DNA of 64,000 nucleotides from a virus (IMGVR_UViG_3300048516_000001:1-64000), one strand, 5' to 3'; numbered from the stretch's first letter, positions 21,476 through 42,188 are shown. Program-made: numbers and translations. Notes: a model not told the origin generated them from the sequence alone.

Positions 21476-21558
21476 AGATTCAAGGCGATTGAAACCGCCG
21501 GGTCGTTTCCCTCTCAGCACTAAAGTGACTGAGTTTCCCACTTACCGAGTTGTTTATA
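21476..21558. repeat. 83-bp perfect inverted repeat, left copy (inverted LE)
   Basis: Exact reverse complement of 42106-42188, checked base by base. Confidence 0.95.
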
Positions 21559-21647
21559 TGAGGCAAAGACTTGAATAATTGTAATTTTAGCCGTCTTGAA
21601 AGACGGGGCTTTTACCCAGTTTTCTGGTAAATAGCTCTAAACGTACT

Positions 21648-22019
21648 TTGTCCATAAGTATTATGTCAGAAAACAAATTAATTCTACCTTCCGAAGTTGG
21701 TGAAGTGTCAGACGGGTTTCACACTTTTAATGAATTGTACGACCATCGCTGCACCTTGTTTCTCGCATTGTTAACGTTGGTTAATAATGCTTGGTATTCT
21801 AAAAAGCATAGTGACGGGTCTGAGTGGAGCGGCTGGTTTATTGCTGGCGTTGAGATAGAAGAAGGTAAGCAAATTACATATCATCTGCCTAATAAGTACC
21901 TGAGAATTGCTGAAGACAGGTTGGACTATAAGGAGTGTGCGCCGGAATGGGATGGACATACCTCAGCCGATGTTCTGATACGCTTGACAGAAGTGCGAGA
22001 CGCAAGCCCCTGGCTTTAG
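21648..22019 (+). CDS. Conserved phage-type hypothetical protein (EWDGH motif)
   Basis: 123-aa ORF with DGFHTFNELYDHR...WYSKKHSDGSEW...ITYHLP...EWDGHTS. Its last codons lie in the LE of the downstream IS. Confidence 0.55.
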   Translation: MSISIMSENKLILPSEVGEVSDGFHTFNELYDHRCTLFLALLTLVNNAWYSKKHSDGSEWSGWFIAGVEIEEGKQITYHLPNKYLRIAEDRLDYKECAPEWDGHTSADVLIRLTEVRDASPWL

Positions 22020-22113
22020 ACACGGGGAAAAGTCGGCAGCGGTTTCAACCGCATTGAATATTTCTTTACATTTCAATACGCAATATACAGATTCGTTCGT
22101 GTATACTGCGGGT

Positions 22114-22512
22114 ATGAAAGTAAAACTCAAATCCAATGCCAATGTAATATACTCTTGTAACTACCATATTGTTTGGTGTCCTAAGTATCGTAGGTCTGTG
22201 TTGATTAACGGTGTAGATATTCGCCTGAAATCGATTCTACAAGAAGTCTGTGCTGAATTCAATGCTGAGTTACTAGAAATGGAAGTCATGTCAGATCACG
22301 TCCACATTCTGGTAGGAGTAGACCCACAATTCGGAATTGCAAAATTAATTAGATACCTGAAAGGGCGTTCATCTCGACTGTTGAGGCAAGAATTTCCTTG
22401 GTTGAAAAGCCGACTACCAACTCTTTGGACAAATAGTTATTTCGTTGCAACGGTTGGTGGTGCACCGTTATCCGTCGTTAAGCAGTATATCGAGAATCAA
22501 AAAAATGTCTAA
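22114..22512 (+). CDS. tnpA: IS200/IS605 Y1 (HUH) transposase TnpA
   Basis: YHIVWCPKYRR, HUH motif SDHVHILV, and catalytic Tyr region SYFVATVGGAP. Start taken at MKVKLKS. Confidence 0.9.
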   Translation: MKVKLKSNANVIYSCNYHIVWCPKYRRSVLINGVDIRLKSILQEVCAEFNAELLEMEVMSDHVHILVGVDPQFGIAKLIRYLKGRSSRLLRQEFPWLKSRLPTLWTNSYFVATVGGAPLSVVKQYIENQKNV

Positions 22513-23772
22513 TTACGGATGCCAGCAAAACTTAATTAGTCCCGATTCTAGTCTGAAGGCGATTTTAGAGTTTGTATGTGGTGAATCAAATAAGTTGGCG
22601 AATTGTGCGCTGTACTATGGTCGTCAGTTGTATTTCAAGACTGGTAAGATTCCTGGAAAATACGATTTCCATAAAATGTTCAAATCAAATTTGCATTTTA
22701 AAGCTCTGTATTCTCATGTCGCGCAGCAAACTTTAACCAGCGTCGCCGAATCTTTTAGTTCGTACATTGGGCTACTAAAAGGAATTAAATCTGGGACTGT
22801 CACACAGCATCCAAGATTGCCGGGATACAGAAAAGATTCTCTGAAATTAGTAACATTCCCCAAAGCTGATGTCAAATTCAAAAACGGACTACTACGCTTT
22901 CCGTTGGGTAGCAAGGTCAAGCTTTGGTTTGGAGTTGGGGAATTCTTTTTGCCGATGCCATCAAATTTGGATTACAAGAAATTGATTGAAATTCGGATTC
23001 TCCCCAAAAATCGCTGTTTTTATGCCGAATTTGTGTATCGAACAGAGGAATTGGCTGTAGATGTTAGTCCAGGTCGTGTACTGGGATTAGACCACGGAAT
23101 TAATAACTGGTTGACAGGAGTATCCAATGTGGGAACTTCTTTCATTATTGATGGGCTACACCTAAAGTCCTTGAATCAATGGTACAACAAGCGAATCTCT
23201 GTCTTGAAAAAGAATCAACCCCAAGGTTTCTGGTCAAATCAATTAGCCAGGATTACCGAGAAAAGGAATAGACAAATTAGAGATGCAGTAAACAAAGCAG
23301 CGAGAATTGTAATTAACCACTGCCTTAAAAATCAAATAGAGACCGTAGTTTTCGGGTGGAATAAAGATCAGAAACAACGTGCAAATATGGGTAAAAAGAC
23401 TAATCAAAAATTCGTACAAATTCCCACGGGTAGACTGAAAGACAGGATATCTCAGTTATGCCAACAGCATGGAATTAAGTTTGTAGAAACCGAAGAAGCA
23501 TATACCTCAAAAGCCAGTTTTCTCGATAATGATTCACTACCTAAGTTCGGTGAAAAACCTGAAGGGTGGAAAGAATCAGGAAAAGAGTAACTCGCGGACT
23601 GTATCGTTCAGCAGATGGTACAAAAATCAATGCCGATTGCAACGGCGCAGCCAATATTATCAAAAAAGTAGCGGTAAAACTGGGATTGAATCTTAGTGGA
23701 ATCAGTAGCGGCGACTTGATAGCGCCTTTGAAAATCCGACTCTGGACTCTTCAAGAATCCCCTCGCCTTTAG
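22505..23772 (+). pseudogene. tnpB: tnpB (IS1341-type, no zinc finger) with a 1-nt frame disruption near 23582-23585
   Basis: Two overlapping ORFs (to 23590 and from 23566) together align with the intact TnpB at 42371-43693. The break falls at GGAAAAGAG, versus GGAAAACGAG in the intact copy. The RuvC-III motif NADCNGAANI lies after the break. Confidence 0.8.
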
Positions 23773-23830
23773 GCATGGGGAGTATCAAAGACTGGATTGA
23801 CAACGGTTCTTATATTTTGCCAAAGTATTG

Positions 23831-23968
23831 ATGACAGCAACATCTCAGTCCTACGAACTCCGCCCGTATCAAGATAATCTAATCGCTGAGGTTAGATTAT
23901 CTTGGGCTGCTTATCGTCGTCTTCTATTGCAATTGCCTACAGGTGGCGGCAATGCCAGATATTGCTAA
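23831..23968 (+). pseudogene. N-terminal remnant of a DEAD/SF2 helicase gene
   Basis: My translation: MTATSQSYELRPYQDNLIAEVRLSWAAYRRLLLQLPTGGGNARYC*. It has the LRPYQ and LPTGGG(K) helicase motifs I/Ia and stops inside the Walker A motif. Confidence 0.5.
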
Positions 23969-24135
23969 ATCAATTACAGTCAGTGGGCGTTTATTGAAGA
24001 AGCAGGAAACCGCAGAAAATTAGACCCTGAAGAAGATTGGGCTAAAGTACAGTATTTGAAATATCGGAAGAGTTGACACCATTGACCGAAAAGCGATAAA
24101 CAGATAAAGCTCACTCGCTCCCGACAAGCAACCTA

Positions 24136-24313
24136 GAGCATTGTAACCAGTTAAGCCCATCCACTGAAACCGTTGTACCGCATACGTTCTCAGCGTGTCG
24201 GCAAAATACTTTTAGAAAACACTTGACAATCCTAATCGGGTAGCCTATACTGATAACAGTTGGGAAGCAAACCACTGCCCGACACGCCACACTGAACCAC
24301 GAAAACCAAATGA
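24136..24313 (+). repeat. About 180-bp promoter/5'UTR cassette, copy 1
   Basis: Aligns with 25101-25280 along its whole length with scattered mismatches, including the promoter and AACCAAATGA at the start codon. Confidence 0.85.
24223..24251 (+). promoter_or_regulatory. Family-A promoter, copy 2
   Basis: TTGACA 24223-28, 17 nt, TATACT 24246-51, upstream AAAATACTTTTAGAAAACAC. Confidence 0.6.
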
Positions 24314-24990
24314 CGAAAGAATCAGAATCGGTAAAAATGAAATTACACTTAATACTATCAGGTAAGGAATGTAATAAATCAGACTTCAAAGACCTCAAAG
24401 ATTTAGCTCATCGTCGGTTTAGTGACGAGTTCAAAGAAGCTATTTGCGATACGACTCTGTACAATCTTAACCCTCCCTATTGGGCGTACTTAGAGTCTTG
24501 TACTAAAAAACTAGAAAGTAAGAAATTCAACAAAACTGAGAACGGTCAAGTTTTAGAAGTTCTTCGTTCGTGGGCGAAAATTATTCCTTTGCTTGAAGAA
24601 GTCGCCACACACATAGAAAATGTTCGCAAGGTAAGCGTAGTAAAAGCCCCGTCTCGAACGCTAGAGAATACGGGAACTTGCGCGATATGCGCGCAGAACA
24701 CCAAGCTGTTAAACGGGAAAATAGTCAATCACGGGTACGAGGTTAAGTGCCATCAGCACGTAGGAGGAATCTGCTTTGGTGTGAATTATCCACCATTAGA
24801 AGTGTCATCGGAAGCACGTATTAAATATGTAGAGCATCTCAAGAAGCTTAAGATTGACTTGGAACGTCGGAGCAAACCTGTCACGCCATTGTCCGTGGGA
24901 GAAAAATTAGTTGCAGGAAATCTGAGAGGTGTAAATCGAGAGCTAGCGTTTTTTGAAAAACTTATCACTAAGACTGTGCAAGCGACCTAG
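24310..24990 (+). CDS. Hypothetical protein with Cys/His cluster
   Basis: 226-aa ORF with CAICAQ...NHGYEVKCHQHVGGIC. Confidence 0.6.
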   Translation: MTKESESVKMKLHLILSGKECNKSDFKDLKDLAHRRFSDEFKEAICDTTLYNLNPPYWAYLESCTKKLESKKFNKTENGQVLEVLRSWAKIIPLLEEVATHIENVRKVSVVKAPSRTLENTGTCAICAQNTKLLNGKIVNHGYEVKCHQHVGGICFGVNYPPLEVSSEARIKYVEHLKKLKIDLERRSKPVTPLSVGEKLVAGNLRGVNRELAFFEKLITKTVQAT

Positions 24991-25100
24991 AGCGCGTCAA
25001 CCGATTCAATCCACACAAGCTGGGGGAATTCAGTCCTCCAGCTTGTTAACCATTACTCAACCAAGACGACATCATTAACACCTGAATTCATCCAAGCTAA

Positions 25101-25280
25101 GAGCATTGTAACCAGCTAAGCTTATCCATCGAAACCGTTACCCCGCATACGTTCTCAGCGTGTCGGCAAAATACTTTTACAAAATGCTTGACAATCCTAG
25201 TCGAGTAGCCTATACTGTTATTAGTTGGGAAGTAAACCACTGCCCGACACACACCGAACTGAACCACGAAAACCAAATGA
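25101..25280 (+). repeat. About 180-bp promoter/5'UTR cassette, copy 2
   Basis: See 24136-24313. It is preceded (25062-25107) by a degenerate copy of the start of gene 26796. Confidence 0.85.
25188..25216 (+). promoter_or_regulatory. Family-A promoter, copy 3
   Basis: TTGACA 25188-93, 17 nt, TATACT 25211-16. Confidence 0.6.
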
Positions 25281-25930
25281 ACACTCAAGCTAAATTTGCT
25301 CAAATTGACGCAGAGATTGCCGAGTTGCAATCCAAGCTAGCGGAAGCGCAAGACCGTCGAGAACTGCTAGCGTCAGTTAAGCCTGCCTGCGACGCTGCAT
25401 TGGTAGCGATTGATAAGGTTCTTGACAGGTTGTGCCTAGTCGGGCTGTCTGATGAATTTGGATTAAAGGAAGTCGCTGCATTTAAATCGGCGATTGACGC
25501 TAAATTCAAGTTTATGGAAGACGAGGAAGACGAATGGGCTACACAAACTGAAGTCGAAATTCCGCAAGTTGTAAAGCAGTCCAAGCGTACTCAGTCATGC
25601 GCTAAAGCTGAAACGAAAGACTACCAAAAACTTGTTTTTGGCGATACTTCTTTTCCTGACCGCCCCGTTCAAAGCAGACAGTTCAAAATCATAATTCAAG
25701 AGTTGACGGGAATAGGAATAGAAATTGGCAAAGCTATTGCTAGCCGTTCCGACGTTAAAGGATGGCATCTCCGATGGGGTCAAGACAAAGCTGGACTCTA
25801 CTGGGCAGTTGGAGGCGGTTGGGGTGTTGAAGCTCTAAAATCAGGCGATGAACTAACAGGAAACTGGGAAGGCTTTAACCTTGACCAACAACTTGAATGC
25901 AACGGCATTGCCATTGACGACATTGACTAA
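25277..25930 (+). CDS. Hypothetical protein (N-terminal coiled-coil)
   Basis: Start set at MNTQAKF (ATG 25277), downstream of the promoter. The track ORF start at 25160 would lie upstream of the promoter. Confidence 0.6.
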   Translation: MNTQAKFAQIDAEIAELQSKLAEAQDRRELLASVKPACDAALVAIDKVLDRLCLVGLSDEFGLKEVAAFKSAIDAKFKFMEDEEDEWATQTEVEIPQVVKQSKRTQSCAKAETKDYQKLVFGDTSFPDRPVQSRQFKIIIQELTGIGIEIGKAIASRSDVKGWHLRWGQDKAGLYWAVGGGWGVEALKSGDELTGNWEGFNLDQQLECNGIAIDDID

Positions 25931-25999
25931 CTAATAGCAATCGGGGCTTAATTAGCCCCGCTCAATTCTAACCACTTCAAATTACCACACACTAAAACC

Positions 26000-26749
26000 A
26001 TGCAAGCCACGAAAACCACAACAAAGACCGAGCAATTCACAGGTACGGTTACAGAAGCTAAGTTAGTAGAAGCGACCGTTTACGGTATTGACTACAGCGC
26101 CAATGAAAAATATGCCAAAGCACTCAAAGTTACGTTGCAAGCCAATGACGGTCGGATGGTGCAGTTTTACTCCTCTAGCGTTAAAGTTACGATTAGTTGC
26201 CCGGCTGGTTGCCCAATTGCGGTTGTAACCTGTGAAGAAAATGATTGGATTGAAAAAGTGCAGAGACAGGGTGAACATAAGATTGTCGGCGACACCCTTC
26301 AATCTCGGTTGAAGCTAGGCGACTTAGTGACAGTTACAGGCCGGGTAAAAGCGGCTTATAACAATAGTAAATCAGTCACAATTAACTACATTAAGCTTGT
26401 CGAACTGGTATCGCTTGGTGGGCGACTACCCCAAAAAGAGTATACTTACAGTCCGGGTGACTTCCTTGTAACTTACAACGCAAAAGGTGAGCGCGTCCGA
26501 GATGAGCATAAAACCAACAATGGCGAGATTTGGAGTTACAAGCGCGTAATAAATGAAGTGCTAGAGAACGGCCACTCTTTTTCTGTCCCCTTAGCGACAA
26601 TAGACTCCCTCAAGGGTAACGCCGCCGACCTAGACGGTTATTGGCTCAATCAGTTGTTAGCCAGCCAAGAGACATATTGCCTAGCCTGTTGGCTTGACAG
26701 TCGGAGGGAGAAGCTATTCATCAAGAATCAAGCAACTGACATTTATTAA
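26000..26749 (+). CDS. Hypothetical protein
   Basis: 249-aa ORF. No motif recognised. Confidence 0.6.
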   Translation: MQATKTTTKTEQFTGTVTEAKLVEATVYGIDYSANEKYAKALKVTLQANDGRMVQFYSSSVKVTISCPAGCPIAVVTCEENDWIEKVQRQGEHKIVGDTLQSRLKLGDLVTVTGRVKAAYNNSKSVTINYIKLVELVSLGGRLPQKEYTYSPGDFLVTYNAKGERVRDEHKTNNGEIWSYKRVINEVLENGHSFSVPLATIDSLKGNAADLDGYWLNQLLASQETYCLACWLDSRREKLFIKNQATDIY

Positions 26750-26795
26750 TCCAATGGGGAGTAATCCCCTTTGTTCACCTACTTAACACCGCAAG

Positions 26796-27053
26796 ATGAC
26801 ACCATTAACACCCGAATTCATCCAAGCTAAGAGCATTCTCAAATCTCATCCCGTCCCTGGCGGCGGCGGACAAGCGTCCGGTTATGTGACACTCAGAACA
26901 TGGGGCGAACAGTGGGTAACTCATTTTTACGATATCCAGACTGGTGGCTTCAACTCAGGCCGCTATTGGGATACCCTAAGTGACGCTGAGAATAGCTTCA
27001 GTGTGCGGGTCAAGGGCTTTGAGCAGCATCTACCTACATTTGCTCACTATTAA
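26796..27053 (+). CDS. Hypothetical protein
   Basis: 85-aa ORF followed by a terminator. Confidence 0.5.
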   Translation: MTPLTPEFIQAKSILKSHPVPGGGGQASGYVTLRTWGEQWVTHFYDIQTGGFNSGRYWDTLSDAENSFSVRVKGFEQHLPTFAHY

Positions 27054-27098
27054 CGCCTAGCACCTTGTACTGCTCAACACCTTGAGAAATAAAGAAGC

Positions 27099-27129
27099 CC
27101 CGCAACTAGCTAGTCAGTTGCGGGTTTTT
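27099..27129 (+). terminator. Rho-independent terminator at a convergent junction
   Basis: CCCGCAACT, 8-nt loop, AGTTGCGGG, then TTTTT. Confidence 0.7.
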
Positions 27130-27139
27130 GCGTACAGAT

Positions 27140-27736
27140 TCACAGTCCTGTAGGTTTGCCGTTAACGCGAGTAAACATCCGTCCCCAGCCATCGCTCGGA
27201 TTAGCCCAAAGTTGACGCATCAAGTCAAAGCTGTAGCGGTCATTCTTGCCAGTATAGCCCCCTATTTTCCGATAGAAGTTCTGAGCACCTTCGCGGACAC
27301 CGTATGGGTCATTTACAATGATTTGCTTGGTGTTTCTATCGTATCCAACTATGCAAACAATATGTCCGTCTTTCTTGTAAATAAGTCCCGCTGGCATAGG
27401 CATATCTGCGTCAATGGAGGCGATTACATGGTCAATATTTAGCGACGTGCTGAAGTATGATTCCAGCCCTAGTTCTGCAAGTGCTTTTGTATTCGCTGTA
27501 TGGTCGGTAGTGTCGCCAAAAGTGTTTAAAATCCTCCCATAATAGGACTCTCCCTCGCTGTAGCCTAAACGTTTTGCAGCCTCAGTCAATGACTCTAATC
27601 CGTGACGCTTCAAAATGTAATTTGCAGCCCCCGCATTCGCTGTCATGCAGCACTGTCTCGAACCCGGCCCAAACAAGTTAGAATCGTTATCATTTTGGTC
27701 AAAGTGGTCAACATTTAACAGCTTGTTAGTAGTCAT
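27140..27736 (-). CDS. Papain-like (C39-like) cysteine peptidase, putative endolysin
   Basis: Candidate catalytic Cys in SRQCCMTANAGA and His in DGHIVCIVGYD. Sits next to small membrane-protein genes. Confidence 0.55.
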   Translation of the reverse strand: MTTNKLLNVDHFDQNDNDSNLFGPGSRQCCMTANAGAANYILKRHGLESLTEAAKRLGYSEGESYYGRILNTFGDTTDHTANTKALAELGLESYFSTSLNIDHVIASIDADMPMPAGLIYKKDGHIVCIVGYDRNTKQIIVNDPYGVREGAQNFYRKIGGYTGKNDRYSFDLMRQLWANPSDGWGRMFTRVNGKPTGL

Positions 27737-27966
27737 AAATTCTCACGGTAATTGAACTTTTTAACTTTTTTATGAATTCGTAGTTTAATTATTTTAATGA
27801 TACAGAGAGTTCTTACTAGGTCAGCTTCAGCATTTTCCCTTAATCCATGTGCCGCCATTCCCGATATGTACCCATATTGAATCGACATATCTTCTAAAGC
27901 ATACAGCAATTCTTGTAAGGTGACCTCTGGATTTTCCAATACTTGAGAAACTTGATATTCTGGCAC
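27733..27966 (-). CDS. Hypothetical protein
   Basis: 77-aa ORF. 4-nt overlap with the peptidase gene. Confidence 0.45.
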   Translation of the reverse strand: MPEYQVSQVLENPEVTLQELLYALEDMSIQYGYISGMAAHGLRENAEADLVRTLCIIKIIKLRIHKKVKKFNYRENL

Positions 27967-28002
27967 TGTTCTTCAGAATTAAATCTGTAAAATTTTACGA
28001 TT

Positions 28003-28422
28003 TTAATTATTGTTGTCAATGTCTTCTATTGAGTCATCTTTTACGGTGTTAGAATTTCTGAAAGTTGTTCCAGATACTACTATTGTCACCATAGTATTGA
28101 TTGCAACTATCATCTGAGAGGGGATTTCGCGACCTGTCCATATTAGCAAGTTGTAGTTGATAACCGCAGTTACCATAGCAATGGCTAAGCCTACCAGCGC
28201 ATAATCAACGGTTGATAGTTTTACTTTTGATTCTTGTTTAAGACCTGTCACCTTGAATACACTAGACATAACGCTTCCTCCACCAAAACTACCAAGCAAT
28301 GCGATTAAGTCTGTTGGGATTGTTTTATTTGTCCAGGTCAAAAGCATATAACTAATTATTATCAATATAGCGCTTGTCGCCATAGTGACAATTACATAAT
28401 CCGCTAAAAATAACTGCTTCAT
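28003..28422 (-). CDS. Multi-pass membrane protein (holin-like)
   Basis: 139 aa with about 4 hydrophobic helices, in the lysis-gene neighbourhood. Confidence 0.5.
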   Translation of the reverse strand: MKQLFLADYVIVTMATSAILIIISYMLLTWTNKTIPTDLIALLGSFGGGSVMSSVFKVTGLKQESKVKLSTVDYALVGLAIAMVTAVINYNLLIWTGREIPSQMIVAINTMVTIVVSGTTFRNSNTVKDDSIEDIDNNN

Positions 28423-28427
28423 TTATC

Positions 28428-28877
28428 TCAACCCTCATAAAAATCGGACTCGTTAACTTGATTTAGTCGTCGTCTTTCTCTCTCCCATTTAAGCTTTTCT
28501 CTTAGCCCTTCTACTCGGTCTGCGGGTGAATTATATCCACCCGCGATGAAGTCACTAGCACCCATGACCGTTCCTAATAGTTCATGGACTAAAGCCATTT
28601 GCTGTTGAAGCATTTCAATACTGTTGGCATTTGGTCCGACTTTGCGAAGAAGTTTGTTTACATTGTTCTGGTTTTCTTGAGTCTTCGTTTTCGCCGCATC
28701 AACCAATTTGACAAGTATTGCATAAGCACCTTCAAGTTTTCTAACTTTTTTCAACAGGAAAAGAAAAGCAACAATATTGATTGTACTTAATATGATAGAC
28801 ACATATAGCAATAGCTGTAAACAATTGCTAAATAAATCAAGGTCAACGTTAGTCGCGTTCCAGCCAATGATTTCCAC
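28428..28877 (-). CDS. N-terminally anchored membrane protein with coiled-coil
   Basis: 149 aa, GTG start, helix LLLYVSIILSTINIVAFLFLL. Confidence 0.5.
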   Translation of the reverse strand: MEIIGWNATNVDLDLFSNCLQLLLYVSIILSTINIVAFLFLLKKVRKLEGAYAILVKLVDAAKTKTQENQNNVNKLLRKVGPNANSIEMLQQQMALVHELLGTVMGASDFIAGGYNSPADRVEGLREKLKWERERRRLNQVNESDFYEG

Positions 28878-28939
28878 TGTAGTAATAGAGGTTTCAATGT
28901 AGTGAATCTAGATCAATTGTTTATGTGTTTCGCGAACCT

Positions 28940-29619: not shown

Positions 29620-29642
29620 CTTCCACCAATACCCAGCCCAAT

Positions 29643-30101: not shown

Positions 30102-30104
30102 AAT

Positions 30105-31858: not shown

Positions 31859-31860
31859 CG

Positions 31861-33460: not shown

Positions 33461-33665
33461 TGCCTTCTACCTCTTTCGGCGGCTTGTTCTTTGCCTTGGA
33501 TTCAAACAAAACTTGTTGCTGAGGTTCTGTTGGCAGGTCGGGAGATATCGGGATTGTTGTTTCTTCGATTTTTGTGTGAAATTCTTTATTAAAGTCCGTG
33601 ACTTCAATCAACACAAATTCTAATTCGGGGCGGCGATTATCTTTGACTTTGATTAGTTCAACCAT
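33453..33665 (-). CDS. Hypothetical small protein
   Basis: 70-aa ORF between the capsid gene and the next structural gene. Confidence 0.4.
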   Translation of the reverse strand: MVELIKVKDNRRPELEFVLIEVTDFNKEFHTKIEETTIPISPDLPTEPQQQVLFESKAKNKPPKEVEGNG

Positions 33666-33669
33666 GATT

Positions 33670-34812
33670 TCACCCTAAGATTCTACAGGCACATTCGGGC
33701 CTGATAACAGCGCATCCGTAGAGAACGTCGAAACAGAATTTTGTCTGTTTGTATTCGCGAGAAATCTCCAACCGCATTGTCATTCCCGACAGGTCATCGG
33801 TAAAAGATTCAATTCGATTTCCGATTGGGTCAATGTCTAATAATGGGCGAACAGCAAGCGCAAAGGAGTCTCGGTGGAAAGCCATGTTGACGACGTGACT
33901 AGCTACAACCGTGATAGCTGTACTCGCAGCGGGAGCAGTTTTTAGTGCTGGAGAAATTGGCCAACTTGTTAAGGTGGCGTCCTTTCCTACAACGTAGCCG
34001 TTCGGGTCGCCTGCAATCTTGAACAAATCACCTTCGACAGGTGCGACTGTTGCACCAGAAACAGTTAAAGTTTTCACCCCAATCGTGTTGGCTGCGCCCG
34101 TCGTAACAATCGTACCCGCAGCTTGGGTTGCATGAGTAAGGGAGTTTTGGGTCATGTACCAGTCAAAGCCAAGTTTTCGACCAATCATCCCCTCTTGAAT
34201 TGTTGCAACAGAACCAGAGTCGGATGCAGAAATAAATTGAGGAAGTGAGGTTGCGTTTGCCTCAGCATCAACATCTAAGATAATTCGGCGGTCAGCCATT
34301 GGAGCAAGTTGTCGGTTCAGAACTTTTCTTGCTTCTTGTGCTGCACCCAACCCACGATGTGAGGCATAAGTTCCAGCTACTTCCGGTTGAAAAGGTGTTT
34401 GTCCAGCAGTTCCGGCTATACCTGAAATCTGTTTGTACAATCCCATAATTGACTTGTCAATCGAGTTCGCCAAACTACGAGCGGCTTCGAGAACTTGCAA
34501 ATTTTGAAATCCATCCATTACTTGAAGAAGGTCTTTGTCTGTCATCGCAAATTCGACCTTCTTCCACTGGTCAAGCTTTACTTGCACCATGCTCGGCGAA
34601 ATTGCTGGAGCGGGGTAGGGGATGTGATTGGGAATTACATCTACGGCATCGCCCATGCTGGAAGGAATTGGAACATCGACAGTTGAACCGCGTTGCCTTG
34701 CGTCGGTGTCAAAGTTTCGATTAACGAGCGCACCCATGACTGAGTTTTCGCGCAACGCCACAATACCTTGGGCGAGAATTTTAGGGATTACTGCTTCTAA
34801 ATTATTAGCCAC
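33670..34812 (-). CDS. Major capsid protein (HK97-fold, P22-coat-like family)
   Basis: 380 aa. The N-terminus LEAVIPKILAQGIVALRENSVMGALVNRNFDTDARQRGSTVDVPIP is typical of this coat family. Lies directly downstream of the scaffold gene. Confidence 0.75.
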   Translation of the reverse strand: MANNLEAVIPKILAQGIVALRENSVMGALVNRNFDTDARQRGSTVDVPIPSSMGDAVDVIPNHIPYPAPAISPSMVQVKLDQWKKVEFAMTDKDLLQVMDGFQNLQVLEAARSLANSIDKSIMGLYKQISGIAGTAGQTPFQPEVAGTYASHRGLGAAQEARKVLNRQLAPMADRRIILDVDAEANATSLPQFISASDSGSVATIQEGMIGRKLGFDWYMTQNSLTHATQAAGTIVTTGAANTIGVKTLTVSGATVAPVEGDLFKIAGDPNGYVVGKDATLTSWPISPALKTAPAASTAITVVASHVVNMAFHRDSFALAVRPLLDIDPIGNRIESFTDDLSGMTMRLEISREYKQTKFCFDVLYGCAVIRPECACRILG

Positions 34813-34905
34813 TTTTTTGTAAATGAAGAGGGGAGTATTCAGCCGCGCTCCGAATCACTCGTAGAAGAAAGGCATCACGCCAACCTTGGGCTAACTTTAT
34901 AGTCA

Positions 34906-34931
34906 ACAAAAAAGCCGGAGACCGTCCGGCT
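34906..34931 (-). terminator. GC-rich hairpin plus T-run between the scaffold and capsid genes
   Basis: Minus strand reads AGCCGGA-CGGTC-TCCGGCT followed by TTTTTGTT. Confidence 0.5.
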
Positions 34932-34958
34932 TGTAAGATATTCAGCAAAAAGTTTTGA

Positions 34959-35732
34959 TTATCGGGTAATAATTGCCTTGCCAGAGGCAATATCATCCAT
35001 ACTGGCACGACCATTTCGAGCTTGTTCTACGGAATAGACTTTAACCTGTCTTCCATTTGAGCTAACGGTTGGGGTTGCACCCGTGCCAGAGTTGGTATTT
35101 TCAGGTTCAAACAGCACGCCCGTCGAACCCTTTTTCAGGTCAATCATTTTTTCACCGATTGACTTCGGCCGTCCATCGCTATTCATCTCAACGTTACCAA
35201 TAGCGTTAAGAAAGACGATTTTGCCGTCTTCTTCTAGCTTGATACGTTTTTGAAGTACAGATAAAATCGTTTCAACAGGTGTAATGTCTTCCATGCCTTG
35301 TGCTGTCAAGTCAAAACTTGACTTTCTGCCACCAGCCTCAAAAAAAGCTTTTTCAATTGCTGTCGTTGTACGCAGATTGTTGATTTCATTTTTTAGCTCG
35401 GAAGCTTGTTTCCGAGCCATCTCTGCCTCTGTTAAGTATTGCTTTTTCGCTTTATCGAACTCCTTTCGCATTAGCAAGTCTTGCTCTTCTCTTTCGTCAT
35501 TAGCTAGTTTTAGCTTTTGGTATTTGTCTGGGTCAATAGCTTTGACTTTCTCCAACTGAGTCAAAAGCTCTTGTTCTTTGGCGGATTTTTCATTAAGTAA
35601 CTTTTGTATCGCTGCTTTTTCTTCTCTCTCTTTTCGCAGTGCCGACAGCAGACCGTCATTGTCTGGCGACTCGGCTCGTGTAGTAGCTTGCTCTGTGGCG
35701 GTTGTCGGTTCAGTTTCGATTTCTGGAGGCAT
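34959..35732 (-). CDS. Scaffolding protein
   Basis: 257 aa, highly charged and coiled-coil-like, immediately upstream of the capsid gene. Confidence 0.6.
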   Translation of the reverse strand: MPPEIETEPTTATEQATTRAESPDNDGLLSALRKEREEKAAIQKLLNEKSAKEQELLTQLEKVKAIDPDKYQKLKLANDEREEQDLLMRKEFDKAKKQYLTEAEMARKQASELKNEINNLRTTTAIEKAFFEAGGRKSSFDLTAQGMEDITPVETILSVLQKRIKLEEDGKIVFLNAIGNVEMNSDGRPKSIGEKMIDLKKGSTGVLFEPENTNSGTGATPTVSSNGRQVKVYSVEQARNGRASMDDIASGKAIITR

Positions 35733-35773
35733 AAATGATTATAATAGAGGTTTCAATCTTTATTATAATCACC

Positions 35774-37309
35774 ATGCCGCTTAAATTCAAGCATCAAGCC
35801 ATCGAACAAGACCCAGACTTGCCATCTTATTTGAGTGAAGAATACTTGAATCAGTTGCCGTTCTGGGAATTCGTAGCTGATATGTACGAAGGTAGAACGG
35901 CATGGTATATGGTTGAGCCATTCCGAACTGGGTCAAGTATGGTTCTTGACATCAATATAGGCGCAAGATATTTGCCCAGAGAAGAGGCTGAACCTGAAGA
36001 AGAGTATGCGAAGCGCATGACTCGAAGTTACTTTGACAGAAAGTTTGCAGATGCTATCGACAGTAGTGCCGGATTTTTGTCTCGCTTTTTGTTGAATGAT
36101 GATGTACACGAAAGTATTAAAACCAGTATCGACAACGTTGACCTCTGTGGTAACAGTCTGGAGGTATTCTTGAAGGCAGCAGATATAAAAAGTCTGCGAG
36201 ATGACCACTGCTTTGTCATGGTTGATTTTCCAAAGCGAAACACCGAAATAACTGACGCTTATACTGAATCAAAATACAAAACTCGCCCGTATTTTTTATT
36301 AATTGATGCTAGAGATGTTATTAACTGGAATACTGAAATCAAGAACAATAAAATGATGGTGACTCAAGCCACAGTTCGGGAAACTTTTGTTAGAAAAACT
36401 GGACGATACGGTAGTGAAAAGGCGACTCGTTATCGAGTGTTAACCCCAGGCGCTTATAAGGTATATGAAATAGAAGAAATAGAAGAAACGCCAACGCGGA
36501 CTGATTTAATTTTAGTTGAAGAAGGTACAACCACGCTAGATTTTGTACCGTTGATTCCCTATTGCTTGCTACCGAGAGACTCAGACTTTTTTACTGGCAA
36601 ACCACCGTTGTACGATATTGCCGAATTGAATTTAAAACTATATCAGAAACAGTCTGAAAAAGATGAAGCGATGCACAAAGCGAATATGGCTATTTTGCAA
36701 ATTCAAGAAACAAGTCCTCCTAGAGTGAGGTCTGACAAAGACGAAACTCGTGTTGCAACAATAGGGCCGAACACTTGTCTGTGGAACGTGAACGCTTCAT
36801 TTGTTGAACCATCGGGTTCAGCACTAGGACATACACAAGCTGACATTGAAAAGCTAGAGCTAACTATTGAGAAAAAGACACTCGCTTTTCAAAGCGGATA
36901 CGCTGCACCCCCTACGGCAACAGAGATTGCGCGTGATTCAGCCACGGCACAAGCTAGTTTAGGCTCAATGGCTAGAGCTAAAGAAAGCATTGTGCAACAA
37001 CTGTTTGATACTTGGTGTTTGTACATGAATGCACCGGGCAAAGGTGGAACTATTAAAGTTAATAAAAAGATTGTTGAAGTTGGAATGAGTGAAGCGAAAG
37101 CCGGATTGTTATTACAAATCCGTGCCGCTGGTGAGATTACTCGTCAAACATTCTTAGAAGAGTTACGCAAAGGCGATGTATTGAGTAAAGACTTTGATGT
37201 TAATGCCGAGGTTGAAAAACTAGAGAGTAAAATGAAGCAAGAGATGACAACACAATTAAGTAAGGCGACGGCATTAGCAAATGACAACCCCGCAGCAATT
37301 TATCAGTAG
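35774..37309 (+). CDS. Portal protein
   Basis: About 510 aa. Divergent from the scaffold gene and directly followed by an SPP1-gp7/MuF-like gene. Start set at MPLKFKH. Confidence 0.6.
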   Translation: MPLKFKHQAIEQDPDLPSYLSEEYLNQLPFWEFVADMYEGRTAWYMVEPFRTGSSMVLDINIGARYLPREEAEPEEEYAKRMTRSYFDRKFADAIDSSAGFLSRFLLNDDVHESIKTSIDNVDLCGNSLEVFLKAADIKSLRDDHCFVMVDFPKRNTEITDAYTESKYKTRPYFLLIDARDVINWNTEIKNNKMMVTQATVRETFVRKTGRYGSEKATRYRVLTPGAYKVYEIEEIEETPTRTDLILVEEGTTTLDFVPLIPYCLLPRDSDFFTGKPPLYDIAELNLKLYQKQSEKDEAMHKANMAILQIQETSPPRVRSDKDETRVATIGPNTCLWNVNASFVEPSGSALGHTQADIEKLELTIEKKTLAFQSGYAAPPTATEIARDSATAQASLGSMARAKESIVQQLFDTWCLYMNAPGKGGTIKVNKKIVEVGMSEAKAGLLLQIRAAGEITRQTFLEELRKGDVLSKDFDVNAEVEKLESKMKQEMTTQLSKATALANDNPAAIYQ

Positions 37310-38189
37310 ATTTGAAACGGTCACTAGCCAGTTAGAAAATAGAGCCGCAAATACATTAAACGAAGCGCTTGACTCTGCGTACAAAGAGATAGAAGCAGAA
37401 CTCAGAAAGAAGTATCCATCGTTGGCTAATTCTGGGTCTTTGATGGTTACCAGAGACTCAATACTGCGACTAGAAAAATTGAAAGGTGTTTTGCAACTTT
37501 TGAACCCCCAGTCTTCTCAAGAATTGCAAGCTGAATTCCAAAAAATCTTACAACTGACAAATGAGGCTGGGGACACTTTAGCCACTCAGATGACACGAGC
37601 TAGAGCGGGTGAAGACTGGCAAGTTAAGTCAGGTGAAATCCCTATCGAAGCGGCTGGATTTGCGGCTGCTAATATGGTCGCGCATCTCAATCGCTACTCT
37701 TCTGAGTTTGCCAGTCGGGCAACTGTTTTAGTTACTCAAGGCGTAATCCAAGGCTGGGGAACCGCCAAAGTTGCAAGCTTGCTTAGAAACGAACTTGGCA
37801 TAAAAAAGGGTAGGGCCGAAGTAATCGCTCGGACAGAAGTGCTTAGCAGTTTTAATCAAGCCGTGGTAGCCTCCTACGACAATTCAGGTATTGAGTATGT
37901 CCAAGTGATTGCCACAGGCGACTTGCGAACTTGCGGAACCTGTGTTGCTCGAAATTTAAAGGCATACCGAATTCGAGATGTCTCTGTACCGTTCCATCCG
38001 CGCTGTCGGTGTACCTTGATGCCGTGGAGTCCCGACTGGAGTCAAAACGACTCGTGGCTTAAGCGATTCAATGAAACTGTTCGGAATGAATTTACTGGAA
38101 CGCTAAATAACGGGTTGAGCGCATTTGAGAAGATGAACGGCATTACCAGTCCACCTGTTGCTGCATGGACTCCAGCGGAATTAGACTGA
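37281..38189 (+). CDS. Head morphogenesis protein (SPP1 gp7 / Mu F-like)
   Basis: C-terminal signature GDLRTCGTCVARNLKAYRIRDVSVPFHPRCRCTLMPW. Confidence 0.8.
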   Translation: MTTPQQFISRFETVTSQLENRAANTLNEALDSAYKEIEAELRKKYPSLANSGSLMVTRDSILRLEKLKGVLQLLNPQSSQELQAEFQKILQLTNEAGDTLATQMTRARAGEDWQVKSGEIPIEAAGFAAANMVAHLNRYSSEFASRATVLVTQGVIQGWGTAKVASLLRNELGIKKGRAEVIARTEVLSSFNQAVVASYDNSGIEYVQVIATGDLRTCGTCVARNLKAYRIRDVSVPFHPRCRCTLMPWSPDWSQNDSWLKRFNETVRNEFTGTLNNGLSAFEKMNGITSPPVAAWTPAELD

Positions 38190-38285
38190 TTTTATATTAC
38201 AACCTACTCGCAACCCGATTTGTTTGAAAATTTCTGTTTTAATAAAAGTAAGTGTTTATATCACCTATTTTTTATTTTGTAAATT

Positions 38286-38729
38286 ATGGCTTCGCCGTTT
38301 GAGTCGGTTGCTAACGCAAAATTATCGTTTCGTGTTCCATCTGCCGAGATGGTGCTTGATAGTGCTGGGAATCGAACACCCAAAACAACGTCTGTTGTAG
38401 TGATAGCCGCGCTTAAGATGTCCCAAGACACGCGATTCCAGCGAACCCAAGAAGGAAGTCCGAACGCTATTTCCGGGGCGGCTCAGCTTGTGGAAACGTG
38501 GAAAGGTTATCTTGTTGAGCCGTTGTTAATGCCTTCTGCAATCAAGCCAGGGATGCTAGCGGACGCAGAAATTGCCACAGGATTGCAAAACTCAAGTCTA
38601 GGAATCCCTGAACCATTAATTGAAAAAGGCGAGTTTCAACTGCTTCCAACGCCTCAAAGCCCGTCTCTAATAGCATCAGGTATTCAAGAAGTTACCCCCA
38701 TTTCTGGAACATTTACGAGAATAAACTAA
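38286..38729 (+). CDS. Hypothetical protein
   Basis: 147-aa ORF. Confidence 0.5.
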   Translation: MASPFESVANAKLSFRVPSAEMVLDSAGNRTPKTTSVVVIAALKMSQDTRFQRTQEGSPNAISGAAQLVETWKGYLVEPLLMPSAIKPGMLADAEIATGLQNSSLGIPEPLIEKGEFQLLPTPQSPSLIASGIQEVTPISGTFTRIN

Positions 38730-39133
38730 TGCAAGATTTACGACAAACAACTAATAGAGTGCGAATGGCTCTCTATTTAGGAATTGAAATGTTTGATGAG
38801 GTTGTAATCGCTCTAGAAGTAGCCGAAAGTACAAGCGTATTTTTAATAGAAGAGGTTGAAAAAGATTTAACGCAATTAGAGAAACTTTCGGCACAGCTAA
38901 CTGCTGAATTAAGCAGCCCTAACTCGGCACTTACGCAAGCAGATGTCTTGCGGTTTGCTGAAGGACAAAGAGCAAAAGGGATGATTATTCTGCAATACAA
39001 CCTAATCCAAAAGTTGGCGAACACATTAGGGCTAAGACCAAACCTAGAAATTGTAGAAAATATTGCAGCAGCTATGGGCTTTGCTTTGGGGAATACTAAT
39101 AATCTAATCTTTGGGCAAATTCAAAGAAGCTAA
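38729..39133 (+). CDS. Hypothetical protein
   Basis: 134-aa ORF. 1-nt overlap. Confidence 0.5.
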   Translation: MQDLRQTTNRVRMALYLGIEMFDEVVIALEVAESTSVFLIEEVEKDLTQLEKLSAQLTAELSSPNSALTQADVLRFAEGQRAKGMIILQYNLIQKLANTLGLRPNLEIVENIAAAMGFALGNTNNLIFGQIQRS

Positions 39134-39898
39134 ATGGCGATTACCTTTTACGACTACAAGACAAATCCGACAATTAAAATTCGCAATAAATTAGTAGAAG
39201 AAAATATCAATTTAGCTCGTTTTGTCGCACATAAAATTGCGTCAAGAGTGCCTATTCCTTACGAAGAATTAGAGCAAATTGCATCAATGGGATTGATTTT
39301 AGCAGTTGAGCGGTACGACCCTACAATAGGTGCTAAATTTAGCACCTTTGCAATCCCCTTGATTACGGGACGGCTATTGAACTTCGTTAGAGACAGTTCT
39401 AATGTCATTCAATTGCCTCGAAAGTATCATGAGATACTTCAAAAAGGAAAGAGAATCCTCAGAGAATTAAGCGTATCTTTGGGGCGGACTCCCACTAAAA
39501 ACGAGTTCTTTCAATCACTTTTCAACCTTGGGGTTACTCAATCTGAGTTTTGCAAGGCTAAAAAAGCATATCAAGATTGTAGATACATATCCTGCTATGA
39601 TACCGCAATCAGTAGTGTCTCAGATACGCTTAACTCAGAGGTTGAGCCAACTTATTCTTATAAATCGCGGGAATTGCAAGCTAACGAAACTCACATAGTA
39701 AATAGTTTAGAAAAGAATGAGTTAATAGGTAAAATAAAGAATATATTAGAAGTGGATATTGCCGATTTGAGCTATCAAGAAGCCGTAATCCGCTTGTACT
39801 TCTTTGAATATCTATCCGTCAATAGAATAATTGAATTGTTAGACCTGTCTAAAGTACAAGTATTTGAAGCTATAAAAGAGTGGTGTCGGTCTGTCTAG
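39134..39898 (+). CDS. Sigma-70 family sigma factor (group 3/SigF-like)
   Basis: Region 2: GLILAVERYDPTIGAKFSTFAIPLITGRLLNFVRD. Region 4-like HTH: LSYQEAVIRLYFFEYLSVNRIIELLDLSKVQV. Confidence 0.75.
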   Translation: MAITFYDYKTNPTIKIRNKLVEENINLARFVAHKIASRVPIPYEELEQIASMGLILAVERYDPTIGAKFSTFAIPLITGRLLNFVRDSSNVIQLPRKYHEILQKGKRILRELSVSLGRTPTKNEFFQSLFNLGVTQSEFCKAKKAYQDCRYISCYDTAISSVSDTLNSEVEPTYSYKSRELQANETHIVNSLEKNELIGKIKNILEVDIADLSYQEAVIRLYFFEYLSVNRIIELLDLSKVQVFEAIKEWCRSV

Positions 39899-40256
39899 GC
39901 TTTAGTATCTGCTTGAACGAATTGATATCTTTGGCTTCAAGAATACTTTTTGATTTTTCTTTCTTGTTCTGAATATTCGCCCAAGTTCTATGCTCTAACT
40001 CGCCCAAATCAAAAGAATCATTGCTCAAGGTAGATTCTAATACACGTTTAAACTGTTCAACCTCAGATTCATTAAGCAATATATTAGCCAGTCGCCACGC
40101 CTTGCGAATAGTCTGTGGGTCTTCATTTCCAAAGTCCGCTAAGCTTGTGAAATCATTAGTGAAACTAGCTTTTAAAAATCGAATAGCCAATATTCCTGAT
40201 TCCATTGTTTTAACTCTTGTAATATCCAATGCCTGTTTGATATCGAATAGGTTCAT
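39870..40256 (-). CDS. Hypothetical protein
   Basis: 128-aa ORF downstream of terL, overlapping its end. Confidence 0.45.
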   Translation of the reverse strand: MNLFDIKQALDITRVKTMESGILAIRFLKASFTNDFTSLADFGNEDPQTIRKAWRLANILLNESEVEQFKRVLESTLSNDSFDLGELEHRTWANIQNKKEKSKSILEAKDINSFKQILKPRQTDTTLL

Positions 40257-41619
40257 TTAGACAGAAATGTGCACCAGAAGCAGCATCGGTAATATCTTTG
40301 ACTTTCCCATCAGGAAACTCGTGCATCCAGCTTAAAAATCTGTCATTCCACGAGGCTCGTAGAAGCTTGACTTTCCCCCTAAAAGTGTCAGTAGCCAAAG
40401 GCTTTGCACGTTTCACCTTGTCTCCGAGTGGTCGGACACCTTCTGCATCAATATCTGGGTGTAATCCCATTAGTAATTGCTTGATATGCTCCTCGTCGCG
40501 TTTTCCACTACTTCCCCCTTCCAACTCCCAACGGACTTTGCACCACAATCCGTCCTGTTGCGCGGTTGCTATCATTAATTCGTCGCCGCCAACCGGCCCA
40601 ACTTGTTCAGCGATAACGTCAACCACGTAATAAATTTCATCAACTAATCGCATTTTGACTCCGGCGGTATAGCAGGCGTTAGAACGAACGGCCGCCTCTG
40701 TTGCCGCCAAATCCCAAAACCTAACTTCTTCGCCGTTGTAATCTAAAGGCGGAACATCATCAACAATTTCAAACCAAGCGCGGTTAAATAACTTCCCCGA
40801 CTCTTCCTTAACTTTCCAATTTCCATAAAGTAGTCGAGCTTGGTCTACCGGATGCAAAGCCTGAAGATTTGCCAGATACTCCGGGTTCTGCTGCATCAAA
40901 ATTTGATTGTCTTCGATTTTAGCAGGAATGAAAGTAAAGCTTTTTGCCATTAAGTCAGGATATCTATTCTCAAGTTCATCTCTTGAGCTACCCCAAACAA
41001 TCTCGCCACTCTGCCGAATAAAGTAACGAACAATTCCACTGTGTTCTGGAATCGGGAACCCTTCATCATCTAGCCACCAATCAACAAACCCCGCAATCCA
41101 AGAGTCGGCATCGGGGTTAGTTGTACAACGAACATAGGGGCGAATTCCACAAGTTGAGCGGTTGCGACTAAACAGATAGAAAACAACTGATTCGCTAAAA
41201 TGTGTTAATTCGTCTATCAGTAGAAGGGGAATTTGACTACCTTGATACTTGTACTTAGCTTGCTCGTTTCCCAAGTGTCCAAACCCTATTTTTGCGCCAC
41301 TAGGAAACAGCCAGTCAAGCGTACCTCTTCTAGGGATTGCACCTAATAGCGGATAGATGTCTTCTGAAGTATCCCAAAGTGCGCCTTCTTCGGTTATTTG
41401 AGGAAAACTTTGTCTAAAAAAGACGGCACCAAATTTTGGATTTGTTATATGACGTAAAGCCTCTAGTAGCAGTGCATAAGTTTTTCCTCCACCTGCCCCG
41501 CCGCCGTAAATAGAGAAGTCAGCGGAGGTAGTTAAAAATGCTTCTTGCTGTCCCGATTGTGGCTTAAGTATTAAATCTGATGACTTGACGGGTAATTTCT
41601 TGTATTGTTTTACGGGCAT
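40210..41619 (-). CDS. terL: Terminase large subunit
   Basis: Walker A YGGGAGGGKTY, Walker B LLLIDELTHF, C-terminal nuclease-like half. 469 aa. Confidence 0.9.
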   Translation of the reverse strand: MPVKQYKKLPVKSSDLILKPQSGQQEAFLTTSADFSIYGGGAGGGKTYALLLEALRHITNPKFGAVFFRQSFPQITEEGALWDTSEDIYPLLGAIPRRGTLDWLFPSGAKIGFGHLGNEQAKYKYQGSQIPLLLIDELTHFSESVVFYLFSRNRSTCGIRPYVRCTTNPDADSWIAGFVDWWLDDEGFPIPEHSGIVRYFIRQSGEIVWGSSRDELENRYPDLMAKSFTFIPAKIEDNQILMQQNPEYLANLQALHPVDQARLLYGNWKVKEESGKLFNRAWFEIVDDVPPLDYNGEEVRFWDLAATEAAVRSNACYTAGVKMRLVDEIYYVVDVIAEQVGPVGGDELMIATAQQDGLWCKVRWELEGGSSGKRDEEHIKQLLMGLHPDIDAEGVRPLGDKVKRAKPLATDTFRGKVKLLRASWNDRFLSWMHEFPDGKVKDITDAASGAHFCLNEPIRYQTGIGYYKS

Positions 41620-41627
41620 AGCCAGAC

Positions 41628-42065
41628 TTAATCTCGATTGTTTTCGGGAAGGTAAATAGACACAGTTTGTGGCCTATCTAAATTAATCTGTTGAGGAGCT
41701 TCTTCAGTCTTTTCTTTCATCCCGCAGCGAGTCTTCTCATACCAAATTATTGCCGTCATGTCACGGTCAACGGTTGCTTTTTCAAAAAGCACTTTAGCGA
41801 CAGTTATCCTTGCTCTGGCTAAACCTTTGTCATAAGCTTCTTTAATGGTTGGGTTCCATTTTTTATTGCGATACAAGGTTGATTCGGACACACCCAAAAT
41901 CGCTGCTATATGTCCGACAGGTAATCCGTAACCAGCCATTACGCCAATTGAGCGTAACTCTGCTTCTGTAAAGACTTTCTTGGGGCGGCCGCGAGAAGTT
42001 TCGGTTTGCTGCTCCTCCCCTGATTCTAAAGTTGATTCATCGTCAAAATCTACAGTCTCGGTCAT
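41628..42065 (-). CDS. Terminase small subunit (HTH)
   Basis: 145 aa directly upstream of terL. HTH: VGHIAAILGVSESTLYRN. Confidence 0.6.
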   Translation of the reverse strand: MTETVDFDDESTLESGEEQQTETSRGRPKKVFTEAELRSIGVMAGYGLPVGHIAAILGVSESTLYRNKKWNPTIKEAYDKGLARARITVAKVLFEKATVDRDMTAIIWYEKTRCGMKEKTEEAPQQINLDRPQTVSIYLPENNRD

Positions 42066-42105
42066 GGGGTTGCAATTGTTGATACTAAAATTAATGTCAA
42101 CAATT

Positions 42106-42188
42106 TATAAACAACTCGGTAAGTGGGAAACTCAGTCACTTTAGTGCTGAGAGGGAAACGACCCGGCGGTTTCAATCGCCTTGAATCT
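42106..42188. repeat. 83-bp perfect inverted repeat, right copy (LE of the tnpB element)
   Basis: Exact reverse complement of 21476-21558. Confidence 0.95.

Follow-up and report, generated by a model that had tools for sequence, protein, structure and literature searches.

The window examined here, a 64,000-nucleotide stretch of viral DNA (IMGVR_UViG_3300048516_000001:1-64000), contains two segments, at 21476-21558 (arm A) and 42106-42188 (arm B), that are reverse complements of each other at 83 of 83 positions and are separated by 20547 nt. We consider it very probable that these arms are the left ends (LEs) of two non-autonomous elements of the IS200/IS605 family of insertion sequences (ISs), inserted independently and on opposite strands into the genome of a tailed cyanophage. 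The first element carries iscB and its omega-RNA, and the second, IS-2, carries tnpB. The evidence comes from the structure of the arms, from a family of related ends that is spread widely among cyanobacteria, and from viral relatives in which the elements are missing.

Two left ends in opposite orientation

The repeat, found by a repeat search and by direct reading of both strands, is as perfect as an earlier, sequence-only reading of the window had claimed. It is the longest inverted repeat in the window, and by our own arithmetic (~2e9 position pairs multiplied by 4^-83) the chance of a perfect 83-mer inverted repeat in 64 kb is approximately zero. Arm A lies just past iscB, 4 nt beyond the end of its stop codon at 21472, as had also been stated. 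Each arm contains an imperfect hairpin, CTCAG(T)CAC-TTTA-GTGCTGAG, followed by GGCGGTTTCAATCGCCTTGAAT, and arm A has a second small stem, GGCG-GTTTCAAT-CGCC. The inner edge of arm A (AATCT) is the point at which IscB-type and TnpB-type cargo diverge, in relatives as well as in the window. A likeness had been pointed out between the arms and the sequence upstream of tnpA in a third element, IS-1 (22007-22060, CCCCTGGCTTTAGACACGGGG ... CGGTTTCAACCGCATTGAAT); the plan is indeed the same, with a different stem.

The minimum-free-energy fold of the LE region includes the LE hairpin, and the 96-nt region folded as DNA gave a z-score of only -1.41, which is unremarkable. Support for the hairpin comes from covariation across copies and not from folding energy. 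A 33-nt LE pattern, made up of the hairpin and its flanks with two variable stem positions left free, was scanned over species-representative genomes. Among the matches listed it occurs at >120 places, nearly all with cyanobacterial labels (Dolichospermum, Anabaena, Nostoc, Microcoleus, and others). Combining the listed matches with viral contigs and the window gave 132 distinct LE copies. The variable stem positions form Watson-Crick pairs in 122 of the 132, in seven pair combinations, and the hairpin is well supported by this covariation.

The motif immediately 5' of the LE, the transposon- or target-adjacent motif (TAM), is NTCAT in 122/128 copies and NTTAT in 4/128. Insertion 3' of a short motif, as is usual for the IS200/IS605 family, is therefore seen in 126/128 copies, and each of the two elements of the window has the subterminal hairpins on one strand that also characterize the family. 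The right end (RE) closest to the LE on its own strand belongs to the IscB type (CAAG-hairpin-TTACTGAC, which in reverse complement is the 5' end of the HEARO omega-RNA) in 34 copies and to the TnpB type (GAAT-hairpin-AGTGTCAA) in 8. The commonest form, making up 23 of the 42 classifiable copies, is a miniature of 360-540 bp that has an omega-RNA (RE) and an LE without iscB. Examples are L054 1299-1735, L044 9426-9872, and L075 4645-5017, together with copies in L056, L065, and L066; miniatures are also found in related phage contigs.

Table 1. Coordinates of the two elements, of IS-1, and of associated features in the window
Feature	Position	Strand	Description
Predicted omega-RNA guide	19940-19955	+	placed by its position directly 5' of HEARO
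IscB omega-RNA, Rfam HEARO RF02033	19956-20177	+	cmscan 149.5 bits (gathering threshold 83), E = 2e-31, full-length model
HEARO first stem	19964-19984	+	reverse complement of the RE hairpin of the element
iscB, 423 aa	20201-21472	+	Pfam RRXRR E = 8e-74 (RuvC-like), HNH E = 8e-10
Arm A	21476-21558	-	~82 nt of LE, belonging to the IscB element, and the final T of its TAM (21558)
Arm A LE hairpin	21513-21533	-	CTCAGTCACTTTAGTGCTGAG
IS-1	21989-23788	+	autonomous, IS200/IS605-type, other end subfamily; TAM TTGAC; RE ends AGTATCAA at 23788
IS-1 LE hairpin	22007-22027	+	same layout as the arms, stem differs
IS-1 tnpA	22114-22512	+	Pfam Y1_Tnp E = 1.5e-45
IS-1 tnpB	22445-23590 / 23566-23772	+	two frames by frameshift; Pfam TnpB (22445-23590)
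Large terminase	40210-41619		Pfam
Arm B	42106-42188	+	same sequence as arm A; LE of IS-2, which carries TnpB only
IS-2 tnpB, 442 aa	42365-43693	+	from TTG start (ATG at 42372); Pfam OrfB_IS605, Cas12f1-like_TNB
RE1, native right end of IS-2	43675-43708	+	AGAAT, hairpin CTCAGTCTCTTTAGAGCTGAG, then AGTGTCAA
Extension, 157 bp	43709-43865	+	ends in RE2 (43832-43865); RE2 hairpin 20/21 against the RE hairpin of the IscB element
Candidate TnpB target sites			TTTAT+AAGTGACAAT and TTTAT+TGCAGTTGCT

Boundaries, cargo, and predicted guides

The edges of the elements were located by comparison with IS-free relatives. Four of these (L004-L007), taken from IMG/VR, have a small terminase 97-99% identical to that of the window, and they match it down to 42105-42114 and again from 43866. 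Around the first element, L050 matches up to 19955, and L017 matches 19320-19953, 21558-21991, and 23789 onward. These breakpoints (19955/19956, 21557/21558, 42105-42114, and 43865/43866) coincide with the predicted ends. The homology edges in L050 and L017 thus place the IscB element at 19956 to 21557/21558, and those in L004-L007 place the foreign segment at 42 kb between the outer edge of arm B and the end of RE2 at 43865 (AGTGTCAA). The boundary at arm B is ambiguous by a few nucleotides because 42106-42114 (TATAAACAA) is also native phage sequence in L004 and L005. That homology breaks exactly at the outer edges of the arms (21558; 42105-42114) upholds the proposal of the sequence-only reading that the arms are transposon LEs. 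The opposite case, in which the 83-mer is kept at empty sites, was looked for in the relatives; none was seen, and the relatives lack the 83-mer.

HEARO is the only Rfam family above threshold in the whole window, and it ends 24 nt before the start of iscB on the same strand. The protein has the RRXRR/RuvC-like and HNH domains by which IscB is recognized, with the omega-RNA of HEARO type upstream, and has 215 relatives in metagenomes at up to 93% identity. Since the first stem of HEARO is the reverse complement of the RE hairpin, the omega-RNA starts at the right end of the transposon. The reverse complement of 19964-19984, CTCAGTGTCTTTAGACCTGAG, agrees at 20 of 21 positions with CTCGGTGTCTTTAGACCTGAG at 43837-43857, exactly as had been noted before. 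Two further proposals stood up equally well: comparison of the LEs confirmed that the ends of the IscB element belong to the LE family of the TnpB element, and the orientation of iscB and its omega-RNA is antisense to the LE-to-RE polarity, with the HEARO start at 19956 being the end of homology to the relatives. The antisense layout recurs elsewhere: in seven copies of the LE, found in genomes of cyanobacteria and in viral contigs, iscB is antisense and ends ~88-126 nt from the start of the LE (88-100 nt in six of the seven).

A guide lying 5' of the omega-RNA and reading across the RE flank had likewise been suggested, and the predicted guide does adjoin the RE, with HEARO starting at the homology break. 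Its length (~16 nt) was assumed from published IscB systems. The predicted guide corresponds to the phage DNA flanking the RE, which is the 3' end of a 193-aa phage open reading frame (ORF). In the IS-free L050 the guide flank is present exactly and is followed by ATGGTGAA; after the flank the sequence reads ATGGT against an expected ATGAN (the reverse complement of NTCAT), a single mismatch, and L017 has one mismatch within the predicted guide flank. Read along the sense strand of iscB, a donor joint would have the RE flank and then the TAM in reverse complement, in keeping with the 3'-TAM geometry of IscB.

The 442-aa protein of IS-2 has the OrfB_IS605 RuvC domain and the zinc-finger/TNB region expected of TnpB, and it is 79-84% identical to the TnpB proteins that cyanobacterial elements of this LE family encode. 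L048 contains another copy of IS-2, which matches at 95% overall and at 92% in the LE and has TTCAT before the LE. Because this copy ends at RE1 (43708), with just 4 nt (TGCA) shared beyond, the first hairpin is taken to be the element's own RE. The real right boundary of the foreign DNA at 42 kb is 43865, where the empty site in L004-L007 reads TTTTTTTAT|AAGTGACAAT. The hairpin at 43837-43857 had been described as a solo RE, and this description has to be given up, since the hairpin closes the inserted DNA at 42 kb and homology resumes at 43866. With two REs present (RE1 ending at 43708 and RE2 at 43865), the guide of TnpB is ambiguous. A 45-aa ORF (MSKKALQIQIDKIEREKLEALSSNWGLSLAGVIRRLIREFEYGKN; 42247-42384, + strand) lies between the LE and tnpB, overlaps the tnpB start, and is kept in the L048 copy. 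It looks ribbon-helix-helix-like by eye only and has no PHROG match.

The steps by which these elements would move are modeled on published systems, whereas their boundaries, family, orientation, covariation, TAM, and end identity come from the present analysis. In the first element (19956-21557), iscB and the omega-RNA are encoded on the strand opposite the transposase-active "top" strand, so that the RNA begins at the RE and its predicted guide is the phage DNA flanking the RE; in the second (42107-43708, extended to 43865), tnpB is in the sense orientation. On single-stranded DNA the LE would form an imperfect, short hairpin in which one T is unpaired. A dimer of a Y1 (HUH) TnpA would bind the hairpin and cut just 3' of the TAM (NTCAT/TTTAT) beside the LE, and the element would leave as a single-stranded circle and re-insert after another TAM. 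Guided by the RE flank, IscB or TnpB would then cut the emptied site (TAM plus flank), and recombination would restore the element. The likeliest supplier of TnpA would be the host, through a cognate enzyme, with the TnpA of IS-1 a possible, less likely substitute. The identical LEs would have come from recent gene conversion between copies or from an exchange of end modules.

Compared with the available relatives, neither the IscB element nor IS-2 is a simple addition. Where the window has the IscB element, L017/L050 have 925 bp with three small ORFs, the L017 segment 5986-6909 corresponding to window 19954-21558, and IS-2 replaces 787 bp in L004-L006 or 3.8 kb in L007. The native sequence in L004/L005 is CAATTTATAAACAA|GATG, and the site beside the RE flank in the relatives is TTTTTTTAT|AAGTGAC. 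IS-2 may have been inserted after TTTTTTTAT, followed by a deletion through the 9-nt repeat TATAAACAA; alternatively, recombination between two direct copies at neighboring TAMs would have had the same outcome. At three of four IS-type insertions, 0.3-3.8 kb of phage accessory DNA that IS-free relatives possess has been replaced or lost, with TAM-like endpoints. The third such case is L050 3429-3760 versus window 27022-27089, and IS-1 is the one clean insertion of the four. Adjacent to this region, L050 3376-3428 is a 53-nt element after TTTAT that consists of an LE 5' flank, one hairpin, and an RE 3' flank (AGTGTCAA), and which represents a minimal element or else a product of recombination between LE and RE hairpins.

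Several points weigh against the interpretation of the arms as LEs of two inserted elements. The tnpB of IS-1 is frameshifted. No clean empty site was found for either the IscB element or IS-2; the relatives carry other DNA at these positions, so that simple insertion is not demonstrable for either. The TAM register is ambiguous by 2 nt at both arms: the register CTCAT|ATAAAC fits the IscB copy yet gives a non-canonical AATTT at the 42-kb copy, and TTTAT|AAAC gives a non-canonical CATAT at the IscB copy. A TnpB omega-RNA had no Rfam match at E <= 1 in 43300-43950. Finally, the evidence for a conversion event between the LEs consists of identity statistics.

Transposase supply, identity of the ends, and the alternatives

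Neither the IscB element nor IS-2 encodes a TnpA, and the only Y1 transposase in the window is that of IS-1. This element has a clean empty site in L017 (TTGAC|AGACTGG) without a target-site duplication, and TTGAC also precedes IS-1-type LEs at two other insertion sites. Autonomous elements with the arm-type LE possess divergently oriented tnpA and tnpB genes, and their TnpA is 41-46% identical to that of IS-1. On this comparison, the cognate TnpA for the IscB element and IS-2 is probably host-encoded rather than the IS-1 enzyme.

The sequence-only reading had proposed that the TnpA of IS-1 mobilizes all three elements, which we regard as unlikely. Its status as the sole Y1 transposase in the window speaks for the proposal, as does the general plan that the ends of IS-1 have in common with the arms (a loop of CTTTAG type, CGGTTTCAAYCGC following the LE hairpin, and AGAATC ... 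AGTRTCAA at the RE). However, the stems and their irregularities differ (CCCCTGGC...ACACGGGG in IS-1 versus CTCAG-T-CAC...GTGCTGAG in the arms), and so does the TAM, which is TTGAC for IS-1 and NTCAT/TTTAT for the arm-type LE family. In favor of the proposal, the IS608 work of Barabas and colleagues from 2008 is said to have found the TAM to be read by DNA-DNA pairing with the LE, such that one enzyme can serve different TAMs. The autonomous elements with arm-type LEs have a divergent TnpA of their own, and many copies of this LE family reside in the host cyanobacteria. Nevertheless, a single TnpA served several related end families in the system described by Meers et al. 2023 (bioRxiv 10.1101/2023.03.14.532601).

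Two observations concern IS-1 itself. The frame of its tnpB is split (23566-23590) near an A-run, and the C-terminal part, which aligns to the end of the intact TnpB, lies in a different frame, as could result from decay into a pseudogene, from slippage, or from a sequencing error. In L017, a solo and slightly degenerate IS-1-type LE (8681-8751) follows TTGAC with no transposase behind it, within the homologue of window ORF 26000-26749.

Among 272 pairings of an IscB-type with a TnpB-type LE, the window pair alone is 100% identical; the next reaches 90.4%, against a mean of 76%. The most similar complete IscB element outside the window, in L189, is 90.6% identical overall, with an LE 83.5% identical to the 83-mer. 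With regard to the direction of conversion, both relatives are less similar in the LE than over the element (92% vs 95% for L048 and 83.5% vs 90.6% for L189), and the 83-mer looks mosaic. Selection is an unlikely cause of the identity because the family tolerates 10-35% divergence elsewhere. From these comparisons we infer a recent homogenization of the LEs or an exchange of end modules, either in the phage lineage or in the host. Judged against the copies compared, complete LE identity across cargo types is the exceptional feature of the locus. Swapping of ends is frequent within this group. By the LE pattern, the arm-type LE is found in just 14 of 82 IscB relatives. In L187 (4400-6100), L188, and L190, iscB genes 92-93% identical in DNA are joined to an unrelated-looking 5' part of the omega-RNA and to another downstream end; with such similar genes lying between different ends, ends and cargo evidently reshuffle.

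The sequence-only reading had also warned that recombination between the repeats might invert the intervening DNA or lead to misassembly. A single independent contig of 58.6 kb (L005 + L050), which lacks all three elements, is collinear with the window from 50464 to 17828. The order in the window is therefore the ancestral, uninverted one, and this speaks against misassembly as well. An inverted isomer did not turn up. That the arms nevertheless serve as crossover sites of an invertible 20.5-kb segment, with two genome isomers in the phage population, seems to us improbable. Homologous recombination can use perfect inverted repeats of 83 bp as substrates, and a crossover through them is plausible in principle. 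There is also a precedent in A-1(L)/N-1-like cyanophages, where segments of ~30 kb flanked by inverted repeats occur in both orientations (Shi et al. 2026, bioRxiv 10.64898/2026.02.14.705889). However, the repeats of the published invertible cases measure 400-700 nt, far above 83 bp, and the window is unrelated at the DNA level to the A-1(L)/N-1 group, its TerL having only distant matches (<=46%). The order across both arm positions is the same in the IS-free relative, relatives lack the repeats, and transposon ends already account for them. No contig with alternative junctions was seen, and an exact 63-mer LE scan of metagenomes returned 0 matches and is therefore powerless on this point; the ORFs inspected around the arms showed no invertase gene, in a search that was not systematic.

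It is a long shot that the identical inverted ends are more than passengers, either because they allow a 20.5-kb structural and packaging block to flip or because IscB and TnpB act as RNA-guided homing drives between co-infecting cyanophages. If the flip were true, it would provide an IS-end origin for the "genomic isomerism" reported in other Nostocales cyanophages. If homing were true, spread of the elements would be coupled to the loss of neighboring accessory genes, the IS-linked replacements of 0.8-3.8 kb ending at TAM-like motifs. Lastly, misjoins can arise at repeats above the k-mer length, and so perfect an identity is unusual, but an assembly or polishing artifact (a collapsed or copied repeat, or a chimeric join) deserves hardly any credence, since independent contigs from other samples agree with the window in both outer flanks and in the order across the two arms, each arm has the position relative to its cargo that is expected of an LE and that is seen in relatives, and the related copies in L048 and L189 have their own LE at the same place.

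Phage context, known systems, and significance

The window derives from a tailed phage and has a G+C content of ~0.42 throughout. Annotation with Pfam and PHROGs agreed with the earlier account of the segment between the arms, which contains IS-1, an endolysin, tail, major head, scaffold, portal, and minor head proteins, a sigma factor, and both terminase subunits. When the two regions were compared by megablast with 50,697 phage records, nothing matched, and tblastn with TerL found distant relatives only, so that no isolate among those records, the A-1(L)/N-1 group included, is a close relative of the phage.

A CRISPR-like array (18157-18554, + strand) is made up of five spacers and six 37-nt repeats, GTCGCAATCAACCTAAACCCCTATCAGGGATTGAAAC, of which the last is degenerate; no cas gene lies in its vicinity. 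L050 has 18 repeats at the same position (7547-8860), which makes the array conserved and variable in length. An ORF at 18529-19059 that had appeared TnpB-like by eye was dropped, as it has no Pfam match and no tblastn similarity to the TnpBs of the window. Six members of a 62-nt direct repeat family, ending in CTTGACAA, lie on the + strand at 9956, 24168, 25133, 44813, 44952, and 53987, and may be phage promoter or regulatory sequences.

The closest known counterparts of the two elements are the ISGst elements of Geobacillus stearothermophilus described by Meers et al. 2023. In that work, the TAM adjoins the LE and is read by TnpA and nuclease alike, and several related TnpB and IscB elements are excised by one TnpA. 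The core of the sequence-only reading, namely a shared end family, an antisense iscB, a guide across the RE flank, and mobilization in trans, is correct but had already been published there. Like the elements of the window, ISGst elements are non-autonomous with related LEs and REs, have HEARO upstream of iscB and bounded by the RE, and carry tnpB in the sense orientation. An AT-rich TAM lies beside the LE in both (TTCAT and TTTAT in Geobacillus; NTCAT/TTTAT here); in ISGst elements TnpA acts in trans and the TAM is common to transposase and nuclease. Unlike ISGst elements, those described here belong to a lineage of cyanobacteria and their phages, reside in a virus genome, and have LEs that are 100% identical across cargo. 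Their RE flanks also differ (CAAG-hairpin-TTACTGAC for IscB and GAAT-hairpin-AGTGTCAA for TnpB), and they are known from sequence alone.

IS608 of Helicobacter pylori resembles the two elements in its subterminal imperfect hairpins on one strand and in its insertion 3' of a short motif. Its RE ends in TCAA and has GAAT 5' of the hairpin, and the same is seen here. It differs from the elements of the window, which have a pentamer TAM (NTCAT), no tnpA, and IscB among their cargo. The autonomous relatives found here, with divergent tnpA and tnpB, are in turn like IS605/IS606. Altae-Tran and colleagues reportedly described stand-alone omega-RNA loci in 2021 (PATE-like or omega-RNA-only miniature derivatives). 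The arm-type LE occurs mostly in elements of this sort, 360-540 bp long with an omega-RNA/RE and an LE, whereas the two elements of the window are full-length and protein-coding.

The Anabaena cyanophages A-1(L), N-1, A-Lf14, and others share with the window a Nostocales-type cyanophage genome and inverted repeats around tens of kilobases. Their repeats are 400-700 nt long and kept in position among relatives, and their inversion has been shown, the isomers being demonstrated by polymerase chain reaction and read mapping, with tnpB beside one repeat in A-1(L) (Shi et al. 2026). In contrast, the repeats of the window are 83-nt transposon ends, are absent from relatives that have the same order as the window, show no inversion, and are embedded in unrelated DNA.

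The locus leaves the current understanding of these elements unchanged. It is a natural example, within a virus, of the published IscB/TnpB architecture, in which IS-free relatives fix the boundaries to within ~2 nt. Across cyanobacteria, a single LE family is common to elements with IscB, with TnpB, or with an omega-RNA only and to autonomous ones; ends are combined anew with cargo, and two ends within one phage genome have apparently been made identical in recent times. It thus offers material for studying the exchange of end modules and for asking whether OMEGA nucleases act in the competition between phages.

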